From IMG/VR virus record IMGVR_UViG_3300025018_002258: DNA of 64,000 bases; one strand, given 5' to 3'. Under the pieces are notes generated by a model. It did not search any database. It had not been told where the DNA came from and worked only from the letters and a program-made list of their open reading frames with translations. A program made the position numbers and the translations under genes. The stretch's first letter is position 1. Every line of letters begins with the position of its first letter. This stretch comes from an uncultured virus (IMG/VR IMGVR_UViG_3300025018_002258). Lineage: Duplodnaviria > Heunggongvirae > Uroviricota > Caudoviricetes. Below are positions 11,979-62,127 of this stretch, piece after piece.

Positions 11979-12328
11979 GGGGATGACAGGTTTCGACGTG
12001 ATCGAAGCAGAATCGTAGGAGCGTGCAGTCGTTGGCAAGGCGACTCAAAAAAGGCCAAAACAATAAGTGCAGACAACGCACTACCACTCGCAGCCTGATA
12101 ATCAGAGCGAGGCGCGACCTGAAGTGTTCCGATTCGGGAAGCGTTCATCTTAGGAACTAGCCAGCCGGGGCTCAAACGACCGACAGCGCGAAAATAATCG
12201 TGAGGTTCTAACGGTCAAGAGATAGTCAAGAAGCTGTAGACCGAGAACTGAAGCCACTGCTCTTGAAAACGCACGTAGGAGCCTTGAGGACGCAGGTTGC
12301 GGACTCGGCTTCGATGCCGACATCTCCA
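11979..12328 (+). ncRNA. ssrA: tmRNA; tag (A)ADNALPLAA
   Basis: Acceptor stem GGGGATG/CATCTCC-A with G3.U70; GGTTTCGAC near the 5' end; tag frame 12069-12101 ends LAA-TGA-TAA; T-arm TCGGC-TTCGAT-GCCGA; CCA not encoded. Confidence 0.95.
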
Positions 12329-21614: not shown

Positions 21615-23084
21615 GTGATGAATACGGCATTATTTGAAAACGCTTTCAAAATCCTCAAAGACGTTGCAGACTTAGTTTACCTGAAAGATAATCAGGGAGT
21701 ATATCGGGCCGTGAATCCTAAATTCGTGGAGGTGGTAGGACAATCTCCTGAACAGATTGTGGGAAAGACACCATTCGACCTGTTCGACATCCAATTTGCG
21801 AAAGATCGCTTAGAGGAAGACGAACAGGCATTCTCTGAGGGCGAGAACATTGCCGAAGTTCGGTTTGATGACAGTATTTACTCCATTAGAAAAACTCAAC
21901 TAAAAAATGACAATGGAGAAGTCATCGGAATCATTGCCATAGGTCGAGACATAACCGAACTGAAAAAGATGCAAGAGAAATCTCAGAAGGCTGAAATTAT
22001 CTTTCGTCTTGTTCTTGATACTGTCCCAGAATCAATCTTTTGGAAGGACACCAATTCTGTCTACTTGGGAGGCAACAAGTCTTTTTCGAAGGCTTGCGGT
22101 CTCGGTGTCCAGGATATCCCAGGCAAAACAGATCAAGACATGCCCTGGAAAGAACTCGCAGACATTTATGTAGCAGATGACAGAAAAGTCGTTCAAAATG
22201 GTGAAGCCAAGGTTGAATATGAGGAGCCCTATACTGATATCAAAAGGCAGGCTATCGGTTGGGCCAGGACATCGAAAGTCCCCATTGTTTTGAATGGTCA
22301 TGGGACCATTGTGGGGATATTGGGGACATATCGAGATGTAACAGAGGAAGTTGAAGCTCGAATGGAACTAGAGCAGTATGCAATGGAGCTAGAAATCTCC
22401 AATAAAGAATTAGAGCAGTTTGCTTATGTTGCATCTCATGACTTGAAAGCTCCATTGCGTAATATCCATATCCGACTAGATCTTTTGGGGGAGGCGCTGG
22501 CAGAATGCGATGGAGATAGCGAAAAAGCCCTAGGCTTGATGGATGAGATCCATGTGTTTGCCACTAAAATGACAAAAATGGTTAATGGCCTTCTTGATTT
22601 ATCAAGATTGACAAATAAAACTCTTGATTCCAAAATAATAGATCTGGAAGAAATAATCGATGATGTCATACAAATACTACCAAACAATGGATTAAAGATA
22701 GTGGTGAATGAATTACCAGAGATTTATGGTGATGAAAGCCAGATCTATCGTCTTTTCCAAAATCTGCTTGAGAACTCAAACAAGTTTCGCGATCCTCAGA
22801 AAGAAGACAATATCGTTTGCGCCTACATTTGTTGCGATGGAAAAGACGAAGTGATATTGTGCATTGAGGACAACGGCATAGGAATGCCCAAGGATCCAGA
22901 AAACCGAGCTTTCGACATTTTCAGGTGTTTACACTCTCAAAACGAGGGTGCTGGAGAAGGTTTGGGACTGGCTATCTGTAAGAAGATCGTCGAAAGCCAT
23001 AAAGGACGAATTTGGATCGACTCCGAAGAGGGCGTCGGAACGAAGGTCTTCGTCGCCTTCAGGAAATTGTCAGGAATTGCTTGA
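21615..23084 (+). CDS. PAS-PAS sensor histidine kinase
   Basis: Two PAS domains; H box FAYVASHDLKAPLR; N box NLLENS.KF; DNGIG; G.GLGL. Confidence 0.93.
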   Translation: MMNTALFENAFKILKDVADLVYLKDNQGVYRAVNPKFVEVVGQSPEQIVGKTPFDLFDIQFAKDRLEEDEQAFSEGENIAEVRFDDSIYSIRKTQLKNDNGEVIGIIAIGRDITELKKMQEKSQKAEIIFRLVLDTVPESIFWKDTNSVYLGGNKSFSKACGLGVQDIPGKTDQDMPWKELADIYVADDRKVVQNGEAKVEYEEPYTDIKRQAIGWARTSKVPIVLNGHGTIVGILGTYRDVTEEVEARMELEQYAMELEISNKELEQFAYVASHDLKAPLRNIHIRLDLLGEALAECDGDSEKALGLMDEIHVFATKMTKMVNGLLDLSRLTNKTLDSKIIDLEEIIDDVIQILPNNGLKIVVNELPEIYGDESQIYRLFQNLLENSNKFRDPQKEDNIVCAYICCDGKDEVILCIEDNGIGMPKDPENRAFDIFRCLHSQNEGAGEGLGLAICKKIVESHKGRIWIDSEEGVGTKVFVAFRKLSGIA

Positions 23085-43812: not shown

Positions 43813-44310
43813 TCAGGCAGTTCTAAGATGTTTCAAATAGTCAAAATCAAAGATCTGAGAGACCTTTTCAACATCCTCAGAGGATTGAAGACGGATTCCG
43901 CTTTTGACAGAATTATAAACTCTCTTTCCTTGAAAGGAAGAGTATCGGAGAATCTTATCTAGAATTTTCCAGTCATCTGAGAGACTGTCTTTGTCAACAA
44001 AGAAGCTTGCGCCAGCTTCAAGGGATTCTTTGTCAAGATCTTCAGACCCGTAGGCCGTTAGAATTATGATGGGCTTGTCTACAGCAATTTCACAATTCCG
44101 AATCAAATCTAGGCCATTGACTGATCCCAGGCGATAATCTATGATGAAGGCATCATATGATCCCTCAGTGACCTTTTCACAGAATTCTTCTGGAGTTTTG
44201 GCCCATTCAATATCAAAATCTATACTCTGGGACCTCTTAAGCATCAAGGAAATTGTATTGAAATCCTCTTGGATGTCTTCTACATATAATACTCGCAATG
44301 TCTTACTCAT
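43813..44310 (-). CDS. Response regulator receiver protein
   Basis: VED, IDYRLG..NGLD, IILTA, GA..FVDK. Confidence 0.88.
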   Translation of the reverse strand: MSKTLRVLYVEDIQEDFNTISLMLKRSQSIDFDIEWAKTPEEFCEKVTEGSYDAFIIDYRLGSVNGLDLIRNCEIAVDKPIIILTAYGSEDLDKESLEAGASFFVDKDSLSDDWKILDKILRYSSFQGKRVYNSVKSGIRLQSSEDVEKVSQIFDFDYLKHLRTA

Positions 44311-45481
44311 GATTGCATGTCGCCCTCGGAAGCTTGATCAAAAACCTAGTTCCTACCCTAATTTCACTCTCTACCTCTATCATCCCTCTATGTTTTTCGA
44401 TAATCTTCTTACATATGGCCATTCCCATACCCGTCCCCTCGTATTCTGGGTAGATCTTGTGGAATGGCTTGAAAACCTCATCTTTGTACTTCATGTCGAA
44501 CCCGATTCCATTGTCTTCGTACTTGATAATATGGTAACAAGAGTCGGTCTCATATGACAATTTTACTACGGGATTGGGTTTGTTGTAGAACTTGATAGAG
44601 TTCTCGAACAGATTTTGGAAGACACTACGAATTTGAATCCTGTTGGCAAAAATAAGCGGAAAATCAGTTTCTACTTCTAGCTTGAGAAAGTCATCTTTCT
44701 GAAGGTCCTGCAAGGCTTCCCTGGCCACTTCAACAACGTCAAATTCTTCATGGGGATGATTTTCTTTAGTAACCCTGGAGAAAATGAGCAAACTATCGAT
44801 CATCTCTCTCATCCTCTGAGCGGACGAATGGATGCGATCCAGATGTTCTAAACTTTCTTCTGCCAGGATATCATGAGCGTCTTCCAGGAGGCAATCAGCC
44901 ATGACCCTGATGGTTCTCAATGGACCTTTCAGATCGTGAGAAACGATGTAAGCAAACTCTTCGAGGCTTCGGTTACTTTCTTCTAGTCGTGTTTTCATAA
45001 CAACATCAGGTGTAATGTCTTCCATCATTTCTAAAAAGCTGATTACCTTTCCTTTGCTATTATAGACTGGGGAGATGGATGCTTTATTCCAAAACGGGCG
45101 TCCATCTTTGGTATAATTTAGGATCTCAGTTTCGATTCTGTGTTTTTTGGCAATGGCGGATTTGATCTCGTCCTTAGTTGACTGACTTGTTTTAGGCCCT
45201 TGCAAAAATCTAGGATTCCTTCCGAGGATCTCTTCCTTAGAATAGCCAGTGATTCTTTGATATGCCTTGTTACAATATAGGATTTCATGGTCGCCGTCGC
45301 TTTTTGTTATAATGATGCCTTCCGCCGCAGATTCTATTGCTAGATTTTTGACTGTCAATTCATCATATTGCTCTTCATACCTTTTGTATAGAAATCTTGT
45401 TTTACTTAGCTCTCTCTTTCTACAATAAATCAGGAGGATGGCCAAACAAACGGCACCCCCAGCAAGCAATATCATATCCAT
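44303..45481 (-). CDS. Membrane-anchored LOV-like PAS histidine kinase
   Basis: TM, GRNPRFLQG, NY.KDG.PFWN, SHDLKGPLR, NSIKF, DNGIG, GTGMG. Confidence 0.92.
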   Translation of the reverse strand: MDMILLAGGAVCLAILLIYCRKRELSKTRFLYKRYEEQYDELTVKNLAIESAAEGIIITKSDGDHEILYCNKAYQRITGYSKEEILGRNPRFLQGPKTSQSTKDEIKSAIAKKHRIETEILNYTKDGRPFWNKASISPVYNSKGKVISFLEMMEDITPDVVMKTRLEESNRSLEEFAYIVSHDLKGPLRTIRVMADCLLEDAHDILAEESLEHLDRIHSSAQRMREMIDSLLIFSRVTKENHPHEEFDVVEVAREALQDLQKDDFLKLEVETDFPLIFANRIQIRSVFQNLFENSIKFYNKPNPVVKLSYETDSCYHIIKYEDNGIGFDMKYKDEVFKPFHKIYPEYEGTGMGMAICKKIIEKHRGMIEVESEIRVGTRFLIKLPRATCNHE

Positions 45482-49414: not shown

Positions 49415-50425
49415 ATGGTAAAGTATATCGGCTCAAAACGTAAAATCATACCATACATCCTTGATACCGTTCAGAATCTTGATGGTGTTGAAACTGTTGT
49501 AGATCTCTTTTCCGGCACTTCTCGCGTTGGATATGCCTTTAAAGATCACGGCTATCGGACCATCTCCAGCGATCTCAACTATTACGCATATGTCTTGGCG
49601 ACAGGGCTTGTTGTTGCTGATGATAATAGACTCGAAGAAACGACTGAGATCATCAAGGAACTCAACAACCTCAAGGGTGAAGCTGGATATGTGACGCAGA
49701 CGTTTTGTATTGATTCCAACTTCTTTCAACCCCAAAATGGTGAGCGCATCGATGCAATCAGAGGGTGGATCGCGAATGCTGATCTAGACTTTGAATTGGA
49801 AGCCGTTTTATTGACATCCTTGATGCTTGCAGCAGACCGCGTTGATTCTACCACGGGAGTTCAGATGGCTTACTTGAAAAAGTGGGCCAAAAGGTCATAT
49901 AATGATCTGGAGCTTCGGGTGCCTGAACTATTGCCACCTTCCAAGCATGGGAAGTGTCTAGCTGTTCAGGGGGATGCAGCAGAAATGGCCGGTCATCTTC
50001 AGGCTGATCTGTTCTATCTTGACCCTCCTTACAACCAGCACAAATATCTCGGAAACTATCATATCTGGGAGACTTTGTGTAAATGGGATAAACCTGAAGT
50101 CTATGGTGTGGCTTGCAAAAGAGAAGACTGCAAGACTAGAAAGAGTGATTTCAATTCAAAGGTTAGAGCTTTTGATGCTTTGAAATCAACGGTTGACAAC
50201 ATAAATGCTAGATATGTCATTATCTCATTCAATGATGAAGGATACATATCTAAAGATGAAATGGAAACATTCCTCTCGGAAAGAGGAGAACTGAGAACAG
50301 AAGAGATTGATTACAAGAGATATGTAGGAGCACAGATCGGCATCTTCAACCCTCAAGGGGAGAAGGTCGGGAAAGTGGAAAAGCTCAGGAATGTTGAATA
50401 TCTCTATGTTCTCGAAAAGGAGTAA
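49415..50425 (+). CDS. DNA adenine methyltransferase (D12/FokI-like)
   Basis: YIGSK, DLFSGT, YLDPPYN..Y..NYH. Confidence 0.9.
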   Translation: MVKYIGSKRKIIPYILDTVQNLDGVETVVDLFSGTSRVGYAFKDHGYRTISSDLNYYAYVLATGLVVADDNRLEETTEIIKELNNLKGEAGYVTQTFCIDSNFFQPQNGERIDAIRGWIANADLDFELEAVLLTSLMLAADRVDSTTGVQMAYLKKWAKRSYNDLELRVPELLPPSKHGKCLAVQGDAAEMAGHLQADLFYLDPPYNQHKYLGNYHIWETLCKWDKPEVYGVACKREDCKTRKSDFNSKVRAFDALKSTVDNINARYVIISFNDEGYISKDEMETFLSERGELRTEEIDYKRYVGAQIGIFNPQGEKVGKVEKLRNVEYLYVLEKE

Positions 50426-59372: not shown

Positions 59373-59486
59373 GTCGGATAAGGGATTGAGATCCACGTTG
59401 TCACAATCAAACTTAACTGAAATCGGTAGACTATATGATGTCAGTGCAAATACCATAAAAAATGGGCAAAATATTACGGACGATAA

Positions 59487-60488
59487 ATGGATTACATAGG
59501 CTCGAAAATCAAGCTGAATGAATGGATTTTTGGAACCATCGAAAGCATCGTTGATGAAAATGATGATCCGTTTCTGGATGCCTGTTGTGGCTCTGGCGCG
59601 GTAAGTCGCTATGCAGCAAATGAATGTTATGAGGTCATCGCCAATGACATCATGAAGTTTGCCAGCGTCATTGCCAATGGAAGCATCGGAGTTTCAGACC
59701 CGATGCTTGTTGAAGCACGAGACCATATTCGGGCCATCGACGCCCTTGACCCCATTGAAGGGTTCTTTTTTCACAACTTCTGCGACGAATCAGACTCTCC
59801 CAGGCTCTATTTCACAGCAGCAAATGCTGGAAAGATAGACGCAGCCAGAGCTTATCTCGAATATATCCCTCCAGGAAAGCTGAAAGACTATTTGCTTTAC
59901 TGCGGGATAGAAGCCCTGAGCCGCGTTTCCAACACGACAGGTGTACAATCTGCTTTCCTGAAGAAGTTTAAAACCCGCGCTCTAAATGACTTCAGATTTA
60001 GGCTTGAAGATGTGATTCGGGGACATATATCAGGGGCTTTCAATGAAGATGTCTTGACACTTCTCACGGACCACGATCTCAAATATGACATTCTCTATCT
60101 AGATCCCCCATACAATCATCGTCAATATGGACCAAACTATCATCTTTATGAGACTTTTGTCAGGAATGACGATCCGGCAGTGAACGGATCAACAGGGCTA
60201 AGAAGTTGGCAGGAAGAATCAAAAAGTGATTTCTGTTCCAAGAAGGCTTGTTTGGAGTTTCTGAAGCAAGTGATTGGGGCCTCGACCGCCAAATGGAACT
60301 TTATTTCTTACAACTCAGACGGCATTATGACGAAAGAAGACGTGATGGGAACCTTTGAGGGTTGTCAATGTTTCGAACAGCTCTATCGGCGCTATCGATC
60401 TGATGTTAGTGAGACAAGACAGTATAACGAAAGCGACTTGGTTGAATACCTCTTCGCGATTCCAGGAAAAATTCCTGGAATCGCTTGA
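59487..60488 (+). CDS. DNA adenine methyltransferase (D12/FokI-like), second copy
   Basis: YIGSK, DACCGSG, YLDPPYN.RQY..NYH. Confidence 0.9.
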   Translation: MDYIGSKIKLNEWIFGTIESIVDENDDPFLDACCGSGAVSRYAANECYEVIANDIMKFASVIANGSIGVSDPMLVEARDHIRAIDALDPIEGFFFHNFCDESDSPRLYFTAANAGKIDAARAYLEYIPPGKLKDYLLYCGIEALSRVSNTTGVQSAFLKKFKTRALNDFRFRLEDVIRGHISGAFNEDVLTLLTDHDLKYDILYLDPPYNHRQYGPNYHLYETFVRNDDPAVNGSTGLRSWQEESKSDFCSKKACLEFLKQVIGASTAKWNFISYNSDGIMTKEDVMGTFEGCQCFEQLYRRYRSDVSETRQYNESDLVEYLFAIPGKIPGIA

Positions 60489-60513
60489 CAGTTGGGGCGA
60501 TTCGCGATATAAT
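60485..60513 (+). promoter_or_regulatory. sigma70 promoter of the Pth2-like operon
   Basis: TTGACA-N17-TATAAT. Confidence 0.88.
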
Positions 60514-60536: not shown

Positions 60537-60887
60537 ATGTTGGACAGATTGTAGGACTCGAAACACTTCTTTGTTGTTGTTCGCACAGACATTCCCATAG
60601 AACAGCAACTCGTTCAAGCCATTCATGCCGCCCATGAATCCGGCATTCACCTCTCCCCGTCGAGCGACAAGACGAATTCCGTCGTTGTCTGCGCCGTCAA
60701 ATCGGAACAACAGCTTCTCAACGCTCAGGACAGAGTGGAAGCGAATGGTATCCGAACCATTTTGTTCCGAGAACCAGATATCGGCAACGAGGCAACCGCC
60801 TTTGCAACCGAACCTATTCCAAGCGATCAACGGCACATGTTAAAAAATCTCCAGCTTTGGAAGATGAAGGAGTTGTTGCCATGTTGA
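60537..60887 (+). CDS. Pth2-like peptidyl-tRNA hydrolase with an in-frame TAG at codon 6 (not in ORF track)
   Basis: GGAGG RBS; my translation MLDRL*DSKHFFVVVRTDIPIEQQLVQAIHAAHE...VVVCAVKSEQQL...LFREPDIGNEATAFATEP...NLQLW; VR.D, Q..HA and EPD....TA match Pth2-fold proteins. Confidence 0.75.
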
Positions 60888-60964
60888 ACGTTTTTCTTTA
60901 GGGTGGTCGTGCTCCTCCCCATTTGGCATTCTCGGATCCCCATTTGGGGCTGACATTTTGCTAA
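60881..60964 (+). CDS. Mini-ORF MLNVFL*GGRAPPHLAFSDPHLGLTFC, putative leader/arrest peptide
   Basis: AAGGAG RBS at 60867-60872; start overlaps the Pth2 stop; TAG at 60899-60901 followed by GGRAPP. Confidence 0.5.
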
Positions 60965-60981
60965 ACAAGTAGGAGAAAAAG

Positions 60982-61329
60982 ATGGAAACCGTTAGAGAAA
61001 TTCTGGACATTCTGACCGAGTGCATCAAGGAAGCTTCTGAACATCAGAAGAAAGCCAAGTGGTTGCGCCGAACCGTACATTTGCATCCAAAGCATGATGA
61101 GTGGATGGAAGAGTTGGCTGAAGTGCCGTATCGTTACGATGTCGGCACTCGCGCCAAGTACATCTCGGCTTTGCTGGCTTTTCACCATGAAATCCGTGGT
61201 CAGAGATTTGATGGCCACGATTCTTGGAGACATGATGCCTTCCCGCATGTCTTCAAGATGGTCTTGGATCAGTTGAGAGAAGAATTTTCCGAAACTCTCG
61301 CTCTTGTCTATGCTGATCTAGCAGCCTAA
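60982..61329 (+). CDS. Hypothetical helical protein, third gene of the Pth2 operon
   Basis: AGGAG RBS; followed by a hairpin at 61337-61362. Confidence 0.7.
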   Translation: METVREILDILTECIKEASEHQKKAKWLRRTVHLHPKHDEWMEELAEVPYRYDVGTRAKYISALLAFHHEIRGQRFDGHDSWRHDAFPHVFKMVLDQLREEFSETLALVYADLAA

Positions 61330-61362
61330 ATCAGCCTGGGGAGTGGGGCAACTCACTCCCCA

Positions 61363-62127
61363 ATGGAGATCACAATGGAATACCAAGAAATGAAGGAAAG
61401 ATTGACAAAAGCCCTAGAGGGTATGGATGTAACTGATCTGGAGAAATTCAAAAGAGAAATATGTATAGAGCTTACAAATAGAAGAAGAATCTGGACTGAT
61501 ATTTTGAAAGAAAAATATGAAACTGAGGGATACTACGATTTTCGTAGTTCGATAGATTGGAAAGACGCAGATCAGAGAAACAAACTCTATGAAAAAGAGA
61601 AGGCAGCCAAGAAAGCAGCAGAAACAGCAGTAAGAGAAATCATTAGAGATTTCACCGATGTGGCATGTCAGGGAGTTTTAACGGGTGGTTCTGCTCGTTG
61701 GTGGTGGAGCAAACTGGACGATCCTGAACGACAAAATAAACCAACAGAGATCAGCGATGAAGCTAAATCGCTTTCTGGTATAATGCTAAATCATTCTTTC
61801 TGGTGGCCAAACAAAGGAAGATATTTGGATTATATCGACGTAAGAGAACATGTTGCCGCTGTCCTCCATGCAGTTAGCAATGCTGAGGATATTGTCTTAA
61901 GGGATGACAGAACGATTGAAGAAGAAATATCAATGGGTGTTTCGTCCGCTGCTGTTTATGATGGTTTCAGACGTTTCTATATGTATCGTGAGAACTTAGA
62001 GAAGGAACTATTGGACGATCATCACTGTGGTGATTGTATCAAAGTGGCTTGTAGTTGTTCTCGTTGCATTATCGACGATGCTCGGGGTTCCGCCGAGGAA
62101 TTCATGAGAGAGGCAGGCTGGCTCTGA
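61363..62127 (+). CDS. Hypothetical protein with C-terminal Cys/His cluster
   Basis: HCGDC...CSC.RC. Confidence 0.65.
   Translation: MEITMEYQEMKERLTKALEGMDVTDLEKFKREICIELTNRRRIWTDILKEKYETEGYYDFRSSIDWKDADQRNKLYEKEKAAKKAAETAVREIIRDFTDVACQGVLTGGSARWWWSKLDDPERQNKPTEISDEAKSLSGIMLNHSFWWPNKGRYLDYIDVREHVAAVLHAVSNAEDIVLRDDRTIEEEISMGVSSAAVYDGFRRFYMYRENLEKELLDDHHCGDCIKVACSCSRCIIDDARGSAEEFMREAGWL

Follow-up and report, generated by a model that had tools for sequence, protein, structure and literature searches.

The window (the whole stretch of DNA that was analysed, 64 kb) resembles part of a large phage, with gyrase, RecD2, RNA ligase, RlaP, DNA ligase, inteins and tmRNA. Three units lie 3′ of a sigma-70-type promoter: a Pth2-like gene, a short leader and gene X (ATG at 60982). 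Their features are:

60485..60513, + strand: sigma-70-type promoter TTGACA-17-TATAAT (12/12 consensus match, by consensus match only), 23 nt 5′ of the Pth2-like start; kept in L099
60537..60887, + strand: Pth2-like gene, start ATG at 60537, MLDRL, then an in-frame TAG as codon 6 (60552-54)
60867..60872, + strand: leader Shine-Dalgarno (SD) AAGGAG, within the 3′ end of the Pth2-like frame (from the sequence)
60881..60964, + strand: leader ORF MLNVFL-UAG-GGRAPPHLAFSDPHLGLTFC-UAA; the same design occurs in 84 distinct leaders
60899..60901, + strand: gating amber, G next; the stop covaries with the anticodon of the linked tRNA
60908..60919, + strand: Arg-Ala-Pro-Pro arrest-type motif, codons 10-13 (from the sequence and family comparison)
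60912..60975, + strand: predicted hairpin, CUCCU 60912-16 with AGGAG 60971-75, inner stem 60922-28 with 60959-65 (constrained folding)
60971..60976, + strand: gene X SD AGGAGA (from sequence and fold)
60982..61329, + strand: gene X, encoding a basic, all-helical protein of 115 aa whose phage family is uncharacterised (alignments A2-A4)

The leader ATG overlaps the last codons and the TGA (60885-87) of the Pth2-like frame, its TAA lies at 60962-64, and the readthrough frame stops 6 nt 5′ of the SD of X; the segments considered for pairing are TTTTTCTTT (60891-99), CTCCT (60912-16) and AGGAGAAAAA (60971-80). Re-reading of the sequence returned the same positions for leader, ribosome-binding site (RBS), amber, RAPP, pairing segments and next ATG as an earlier sequence-only reading of this DNA. 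The RAPP of the leader is the only one across the six frames of the window. That reading had also proposed that the leader repeats the design of the upstream gene; this holds for the early amber (codon 6 upstream, MLDRL-TAG) and fails for the 'ML...L' start, the residue 5′ of the amber being variable (T 21, P 17, L 11 of 84 leaders).

The stretch is present in groundwater and aquifer DNA sequencing runs, and no RNA run containing it was found among the runs listed. Four of these runs were compared, and contigs of two other runs (X2 record 2, X3 record 12) match 60661-61256 with 0 differences; since these contigs are identical and L099, a relative with 96% identity, keeps both ambers and the RAPP, sequencing error does not account for the leader and its ambers. 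Plus-strand coding cover of the window rises from 0.722 to 0.738 when TAG is read as sense, too little for amber recoding (code 15), compared with 0.535 to 0.752 in a Lak locus (L225), and several long genes of the window terminate at TAG. The phage uses the standard code, with no genome-wide UAG recoding.

Several further observations concern the surroundings. The tmRNA gene lies at 11979-12328 (tag ADNALPLAA) and may share a translation-repair theme with the RNA ligase and RlaP; two PAS-domain histidine kinases are encoded at 21615-23084 and 44303-45481, and two D12-class adenine methyltransferases at 59487-60488 and 49415-50425. The module is flanked by two swappable segments, 59373-59478 and 61362-62076: the upstream DNA (59373-59478) differs from that of L099, whose tRNA-CUA ends at the breakpoint and in which the counterpart of the 59487-60488 methyltransferase lies between tRNA-CUA and the Pth2-like promoter, and a 254-aa gene 3′ of X is missing from L099 and from one contig of run X3. 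A GC-rich inverted repeat (61338-61361) lies directly 3′ of X and adjoins the insertion point of the 254-aa gene.

Pth2-like gene and gene X

The Pth2-like gene was matched to PF01981 with 23.4 bits (cut-off 23), and a PDB search with profile A1 returned 2zv3 (E 9e-6), the top six chains being of Pth2 type. The alignment leaves the GK lysine without counterpart, sets DAG against EPD and retains the Thr; Lys, Asp and Thr are what we take to be the catalytic set of Pth2 peptidyl-tRNA hydrolase, and the name 'Pth2-like' was chosen because the missing lysine makes hydrolase activity uncertain. By similarity to this gene 177 loci were collected (best 80 of 160 viral matches, best 80 of 421 metagenome matches and 14 of 243 phage records), which together with the window gave 146 distinct loci. 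Among the matches listed, 82 of these 146 have an opening of start, short peptide and TAG, while the gene is intact in 31, fused or long in 22 and otherwise built in 11. Cultured phages with an amber-gated Pth2-like gene are ME3, BF, GAP32, Arash and Bxz1-like mycobacteriophages. The early amber has left many phage Pth2-like genes without annotation or with a wrongly placed start. PTH2 in jumbo phages has been read as a likely ribosome-rescue enzyme in PMC7824862; in-frame stops, leaders and suppressor tRNAs are absent from the available portion of that paper, with 0 occurrences of both 'suppressor' and 'stop codon'.

Serratia phage BF and Cronobacter phage GAP32 (L007:1806-2400, L008:1806-2400) carry an HD-like gene 3′ of the amber-gated Pth2-like gene, itself interrupted by an in-frame TAG (ELDTG-TAG-GDP) and annotated as fragments; the HD-like gene is intact in ME3 and Arash, and HD-Pth2 fusions occur in XacN1-like phages and L147 (the HD label is a reading of the sequence). 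A start-TAG-GTG arrangement abuts the annotated peptidyl-tRNA hydrolase of mycobacteriophages Catera and ScoobyDoobyDoo (L016:1468-1476, L017:1468-1476), with tRNA-CUA downstream, and the annotated hydrolase start in these two may be wrong. Internal ambers at a similar position, past the HAA helix, were seen in the Pth2-like genes of L003:2501-2800 and L015:1501-1815, the latter with two.

Gene X gave a structure model with a pLDDT of 84.5. Searches of Pfam, PHROG, NCBIfam and PDB sequences yielded no match common to its members, Atlas only matches at 0.79, and the fold search only Foldseek hits with E above 0.69 (best VIA Z 6.0, rmsd 2.8, 66 aligned residues), which is no fold match. Two X subfamilies were joined by HHalign (P 80%, E 1.3e-5), the far one not being reached with the window's X alone as query; tblastn of cultured-phage records with two X members returned no relative, and neither the window's X nor two X proteins from ochre loci found anything when used singly to search for loci. 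X is fused to a Pth2-like domain in 9 loci, and because of these natural fusions, and because it is a basic helical protein without family or fold, we infer that it is a partner of the Pth2-like protein, perhaps one that binds tRNA or the ribosome. Homologues of X in records titled Absconditabacterales/SR1 or unclassified bacterium (L221-L223) are accompanied by no leader, Pth2-like gene or tRNA-CUA.

Conservation of the leader and linked tRNAs

Leaders of the form M-x-TAG-x-PP were found at about 55 places among the Pth2-derived loci (matches listed), so that the search for conserved mini-ORFs of stop and Pro-Pro beside phage Pth2 genes, proposed with the sequence-only reading, had a clear outcome: they are widespread. 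The genes behind them belong in 34 cases to one family that includes the window's X, in 9 to a second family and in 5 to long Pth2 fusions. The second, unrelated family (122-139 aa) follows the leader in L038, L049, L051, L056, L073, L083, L089, L093 and L096, a third in L081 and L144; the fusions of L030, L034, L035, L050 and L055 (227-266 aa) have a different N-terminal domain, with tRNA-CUA upstream in four. The leader heads X-Pth2 operons in many loci, and from this arrangement it belongs to gene X and not to the Pth2 stop.

For the 108 X loci with enough upstream DNA, stops in frame before Pro-Pro and 30-110 nt upstream of X were counted as TAG 85, TAA 4 and TGA 0, the 85 of 108 being partly circular. 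Shifted frames of the X loci gave 19-32 in-frame TAG...PP each, and 815 other ORFs of the same loci gave TAA 18, TGA 18 and TAG 40; 31 of these 40 belong to X copies or to other families that carry a leader. Since the X family had been defined from leader-bearing loci, loci were fetched again by X alone: 41 distinct loci were obtained, with a strict leader in 26, a Pth2-like gene in 32 and tRNA-CUA in 34, and after removal of 5 re-finds the leader was present at 22 of 36 newly fetched loci. The loci behind all these counts are not phylogenetically independent. Variants among the misses comprise leaders of the type R(S/G)P-stop (L091, L180-182, L208), X genes gated directly by an in-frame amber of their own (L003, L207), X genes coupled to amber-gated Pth2 genes (L020, L025, L114) and an amber-gated Pth2 that itself terminates KPP-stop, 58 nt 5′ of X (L113); the leader is absent at L196, L214 and L221-223 among the X loci examined.

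tRNA genes were sought with ARAGORN, whose 'Pyl' and 'SeC' labels follow the anticodon. A tRNA with CUA anticodon was found in 156 of 223 loci (129 distinct sequences), and at 72 of 92 amber-leader loci; 19 show none within the available DNA, and L074 received a UUA call, its tRNA-CUA appearing only at a relaxed threshold. The tRNA-CUA are ordinary cloverleaves with short variable loops, G1-C72 in 107 of 129 and mixed discriminators, and the identity elements of the set indicate no single amino acid. The three UAA leaders (L082, L124, L145) all have tRNA-UUA, which in L082 lies 5 kb away in the record; the Pth2 of L124 is likewise UAA-gated, and the TGA-gated Pth2-HD fusion L147 has tRNA-UCA. 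The match of stop and anticodon has a nominal p of 6e-5, which is overstated because L082 and L145 look related. No tRNA was seen in the short sequences of two UAA-gated Pth2 loci (L112, L150). Amber recoding was considered behind the ochre gate of L082 and was not seen in four 20-kb pieces of the 242-kb record. Three of 15 Lak matches were examined, from phages that are amber-recoded, and in 3/3 the order is tRNA-UUA, a leader M(E/K)LQ(H/F)W-UAA-VT..RG(S)P, an X-like gene (a weak match, 7.0 bits) and a Pth2-like gene. This UUA tRNA is reported in 51/51 Lak genomes, and nothing else in the part of PMC8346664 that was available points to recoding of TAA. That the anticodon of the linked tRNA follows the gating stop codon is shown by comparison of these loci.

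Sixteen other short ORFs with an SD and an early TAG are listed for the window, and taken singly the leader might pass for a chance ORF, a pseudogene or a sign of genome-wide UAG recoding; at family level this is refuted by the conservation, the covariation of stop and anticodon, the small gain in coding cover and the long genes ending at TAG, and we give it next to no weight. Conservation, reading frame and covariation, all obtained by comparison between loci, confirm the leader as a real, conserved and widespread regulatory element.

Predicted hairpin and a proposed readthrough switch

Hairpin and opening costs were computed. The distance from the PP end to the X ATG has a median of 59 nt (50-71 nt for the central 80%), and 82 leaders were folded with the ribosome footprint held open, 2 longer-spaced leaders being excluded. 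With a ribosome on the amber, 11.1 kcal/mol is needed to open the X start region, against 4.1 with one on PP and 10.4 in naked mRNA; the gain from amber to PP exceeds 2 in 78 of 82 leaders, and pairing of the start region peaks at the Pro codons and the next 12 nt. Shuffled spacers gave 6.0 with a gain of 0.5, and 67 of 82 leaders beat all 12 of their shuffles, that of L099 failing to do so. Cognate arms pair better than non-cognate ones (-13.1 vs -8.2), the cognate arm being the best partner in 17 of 81 cases and among the top five in 39 of 81. In Lak-B1 the cost of opening the start drops from 12.0 kcal/mol to 3.3. When two leader subgroups, of 11 and 12 sequences, were aligned with MAFFT and folded with RNAalifold, 0 and 2 pairs and no consensus hairpin resulted; the arms do not align, and pair-level covariation was not seen in these subgroups. 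The family has a uORF at a fixed distance upstream of a start predicted to be sequestered, and the window copy of this hairpin is weak: freeing its SD takes 6.0 kcal/mol while a ribosome sits on the amber, 2.8 at RAP/P and 2.7 in naked mRNA, a local hairpin keeps part of the SD paired even in the stalled state (constrained folds), the arms rank behind 14 of 80 foreign arms, and 60860-61000 folded without constraint does not surpass its shuffles (z -0.1). The trait, strong in the family, is poorly developed in the window.

Two pairings with the SD had been proposed; CUCCU:AGGAG was recovered (p 0.94-0.99 with the ribosome at the amber), whereas the U-tract was never the top SD partner. The U-tract just 5′ of the amber, complementary to the SD region in the window, speaks for a reading in which a pause at the amber, through slow termination or uncharged tRNA, would open the RBS, with X on when readthrough fails. 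This we regard as very improbable, since the start is most closed at exactly that position (6.0 vs 2.8 for the window SD, 11.1 vs 4.1 for the family), and X and Pth2 gated elsewhere by their own in-frame ambers mean that readthrough is on. The other route proposed in the sequence-only reading, by which a ribosome that reads through and stalls on RAPP would free the RBS downstream, is supported by comparison and folding, with the stalling itself a presumed step.

The motif in the 84 distinct leaders is RGPP in 41, RSPP in 6, RAPP in 3 and RDPP in 3, the rest being mostly xKPP or xRPP. RxPP is present in 54 of 84 (Arg codons AGR 30, CGN 24), so that a RAPP-like motif near the uORF end is conserved as peptide in the window and these leaders, and 30 of 84 are without Arg at -2. 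The amber-to-PP spacing is 3-5 codons in 73 of 84, a purine follows the amber in 78 of 84, and a second TAG lies within 8 codons upstream in 29. The chain up to the second Pro comprises 13 residues in the window, with a median of 12 (63 of 84 leaders with ATG). The stall site is given in the accessible part of PMC10951233; RGPP is the strongest arrester reported in the available text of PMC12992588, and according to the sections at hand RAPP by itself is insufficient, most RAPP-like proteins of E. coli and B. subtilis having failed to stall (PMC12992588, PMC10987492). With chains of about 12 residues, stalling at the RxPP of the leader is plausible, although a chain as short as the 13 residues of the window may fail to stall.

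The leader is, in our judgement, probably a translational ON-switch that is gated by stop readthrough, with stalling at RxPP and with X as its output. By default, ribosomes would start the leader and terminate at the UAG, the hairpin between Pro codons and SD would stay intact and X would be off. When the module's own suppressor tRNA (CUA) outcompetes release factor at the leader UAG, the ribosome would move six codons on, occupy RAP/P and stall there, melt the 5′ arm and free the X start. The sign of the switch comes from comparison, readthrough being read as 'on' because X and Pth2 are gated elsewhere by their own in-frame ambers (L003, L207; L113 as a variant), and since the Pth2-like gene carries a UAG that gates it directly, Pth2-like protein and X would appear under the same condition.

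The window lacks one component of this switch: no tRNA-CUA was found in its 64 kb, and a 13-nt tRNA-CUA match at 45324, inside another gene and with E 0.05, was rejected. The window copy could therefore be orphaned, or need a tRNA in trans, its tRNA-CUA having gone with a replacement of the DNA upstream of 59478; this is unlikely on balance, yet it deserves to be kept in mind, as the tRNA-CUA of L099 ends where similarity to the window begins and the window hairpin is weak. Against it, the window shows no damage to promoter, ambers, RAPP or either reading frame, it is 64 kb of a genome, and the tRNA of L082 lies 5 kb away. Such a loss would concern the window copy and not the element, and it overlaps with the readthrough switch.

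True arrest may also be dispensable, the Pro codons being kept as an anti-SD (CCUCC) and the hairpin being opened by a ribosome that passes or terminates just beyond. In 56 of 84 leaders the motif opens its Pro pair with CCT, which pairs with the SD, so that the same bases also act as anti-SD; PP is immediately followed by a stop in 39 of 84 and the readthrough frame of the window ends close to the SD, and very short chains and the reported insufficiency of RAPP alone point the same way. We nevertheless think it improbable, since Arg is kept through both AGR and CGN codons, RGPP, RSPP, RAPP and RDPP are motifs reported, in the text available, as arrest-permissive and depleted in proteomes, the R(S/G)P-stop and RGSP variants retain the peptide pattern, and the stem begins 3′ of the Pro codons in many leaders.

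For the readthrough switch with stalling, we infer readthrough itself and its signal. The signal could be tRNA supply or charging, which would make the leader a timer or limiter of suppression, or it could be weak termination, which would raise readthrough as in prfB autoregulation. Weakened termination is the most likely signal, in roughly even balance with simple tRNA supply or charging; it is favoured because the gate moves to UAA once UAG is sense and because the product is peptidyl-tRNA-hydrolase-like, and it also fits tandem ambers as threshold raisers. More tentatively, and with less than even confidence, the module (suppressor tRNA, leader, X and Pth2-like gene, sometimes with an HD domain) might be a termination-stress sensor, in which the tRNA would have no other role than rivalling release factor at the stops of the module itself, and a peptidyl-tRNA clean-up complex would be switched on when termination is impaired by host defence or by phage.

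Relation to known systems

Streptomyces bldA is a case of one tRNA gating a set of genes, and in ermCL-type attenuators the position of the ribosome on a short leader sets SD sequestration. Leader and module would share the ribosome-position logic of ermCL and the single-tRNA gating of bldA; unlike these, they involve no antibiotic or rare sense codon, the gate being a stop codon and the tRNA lying inside the module. Autoregulation of prfB (RF2) uses frameshifting at an internal UGA. Common to prfB and the module would be an early in-frame stop as sensor and the logic that poor termination leads to more of a protein that handles peptidyl-tRNA, but where prfB has a +1 frameshift the module would have a dedicated tRNA read the stop in frame, and leader and hairpin would pass the effect on to a second gene.

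The leader would work like the attenuators of the RAPP-type arrest peptides (ApdA, ApdP and the RQH family, SecM with RAGP, and CruR), with decoding of an in-frame stop as its input where those have pulling force, and it is carried by phage whereas they are chromosomal. ApdA, ApdP and RQH are defined, in the accessible text of PMC10987492, by an N-terminal secretion signal or TM segment, a spacer of >30 residues and sec/yidC downstream; the leader, of about 12 residues, has neither localisation signal nor 30-residue spacer and is followed by X. The words 'phage' and 'amber' do not occur in the available main text of PMC12992588, nor does 'phage' in that of PMC10987492. No description of leader or module was found in the literature, subscription journals and supplements lying outside the search. 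Arrest-peptide regulation would gain stop-codon decoding as a new input, and the leaders are among the shortest candidate RxPP stallers.

Recoded phages (Lak, crAss-like, Agate, Jade) have a phage suppressor tRNA and readthrough-conditional expression in common with the module, as far as the available parts of 10.1101/2021.08.26.457843 and PMC7886860 describe them. The code here is standard, in contrast, and gating is confined to two or three genes, those of the module; where Lak phages are recoded, their module relies on a second tRNA, with UUA anticodon. The TAA-suppressor tRNA of Lak phages, a published puzzle in the accessible text of PMC8346664 (51/51 genomes), directly precedes a TAA-gated leader in three Lak records, which provides an answer. 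Suppressor tRNAs of standard-code phages have been read, in the portions available of PMC7886860 and 10.1101/2021.08.26.457843, as incipient recoding; the module offers a purpose for those of phages without recoded genomes. If true, the sensor reading would explain suppressor tRNAs in standard-code phages together with the Lak UUA tRNA, and the module would be a seed from which genome-wide recoding could grow. The amber-gated Pth2-like gene is testable in cultured phages already, and the leader on reporters. Set beside these systems, the leader appears to be a case of translational attenuation, possibly with a new kind of sensing module behind it.
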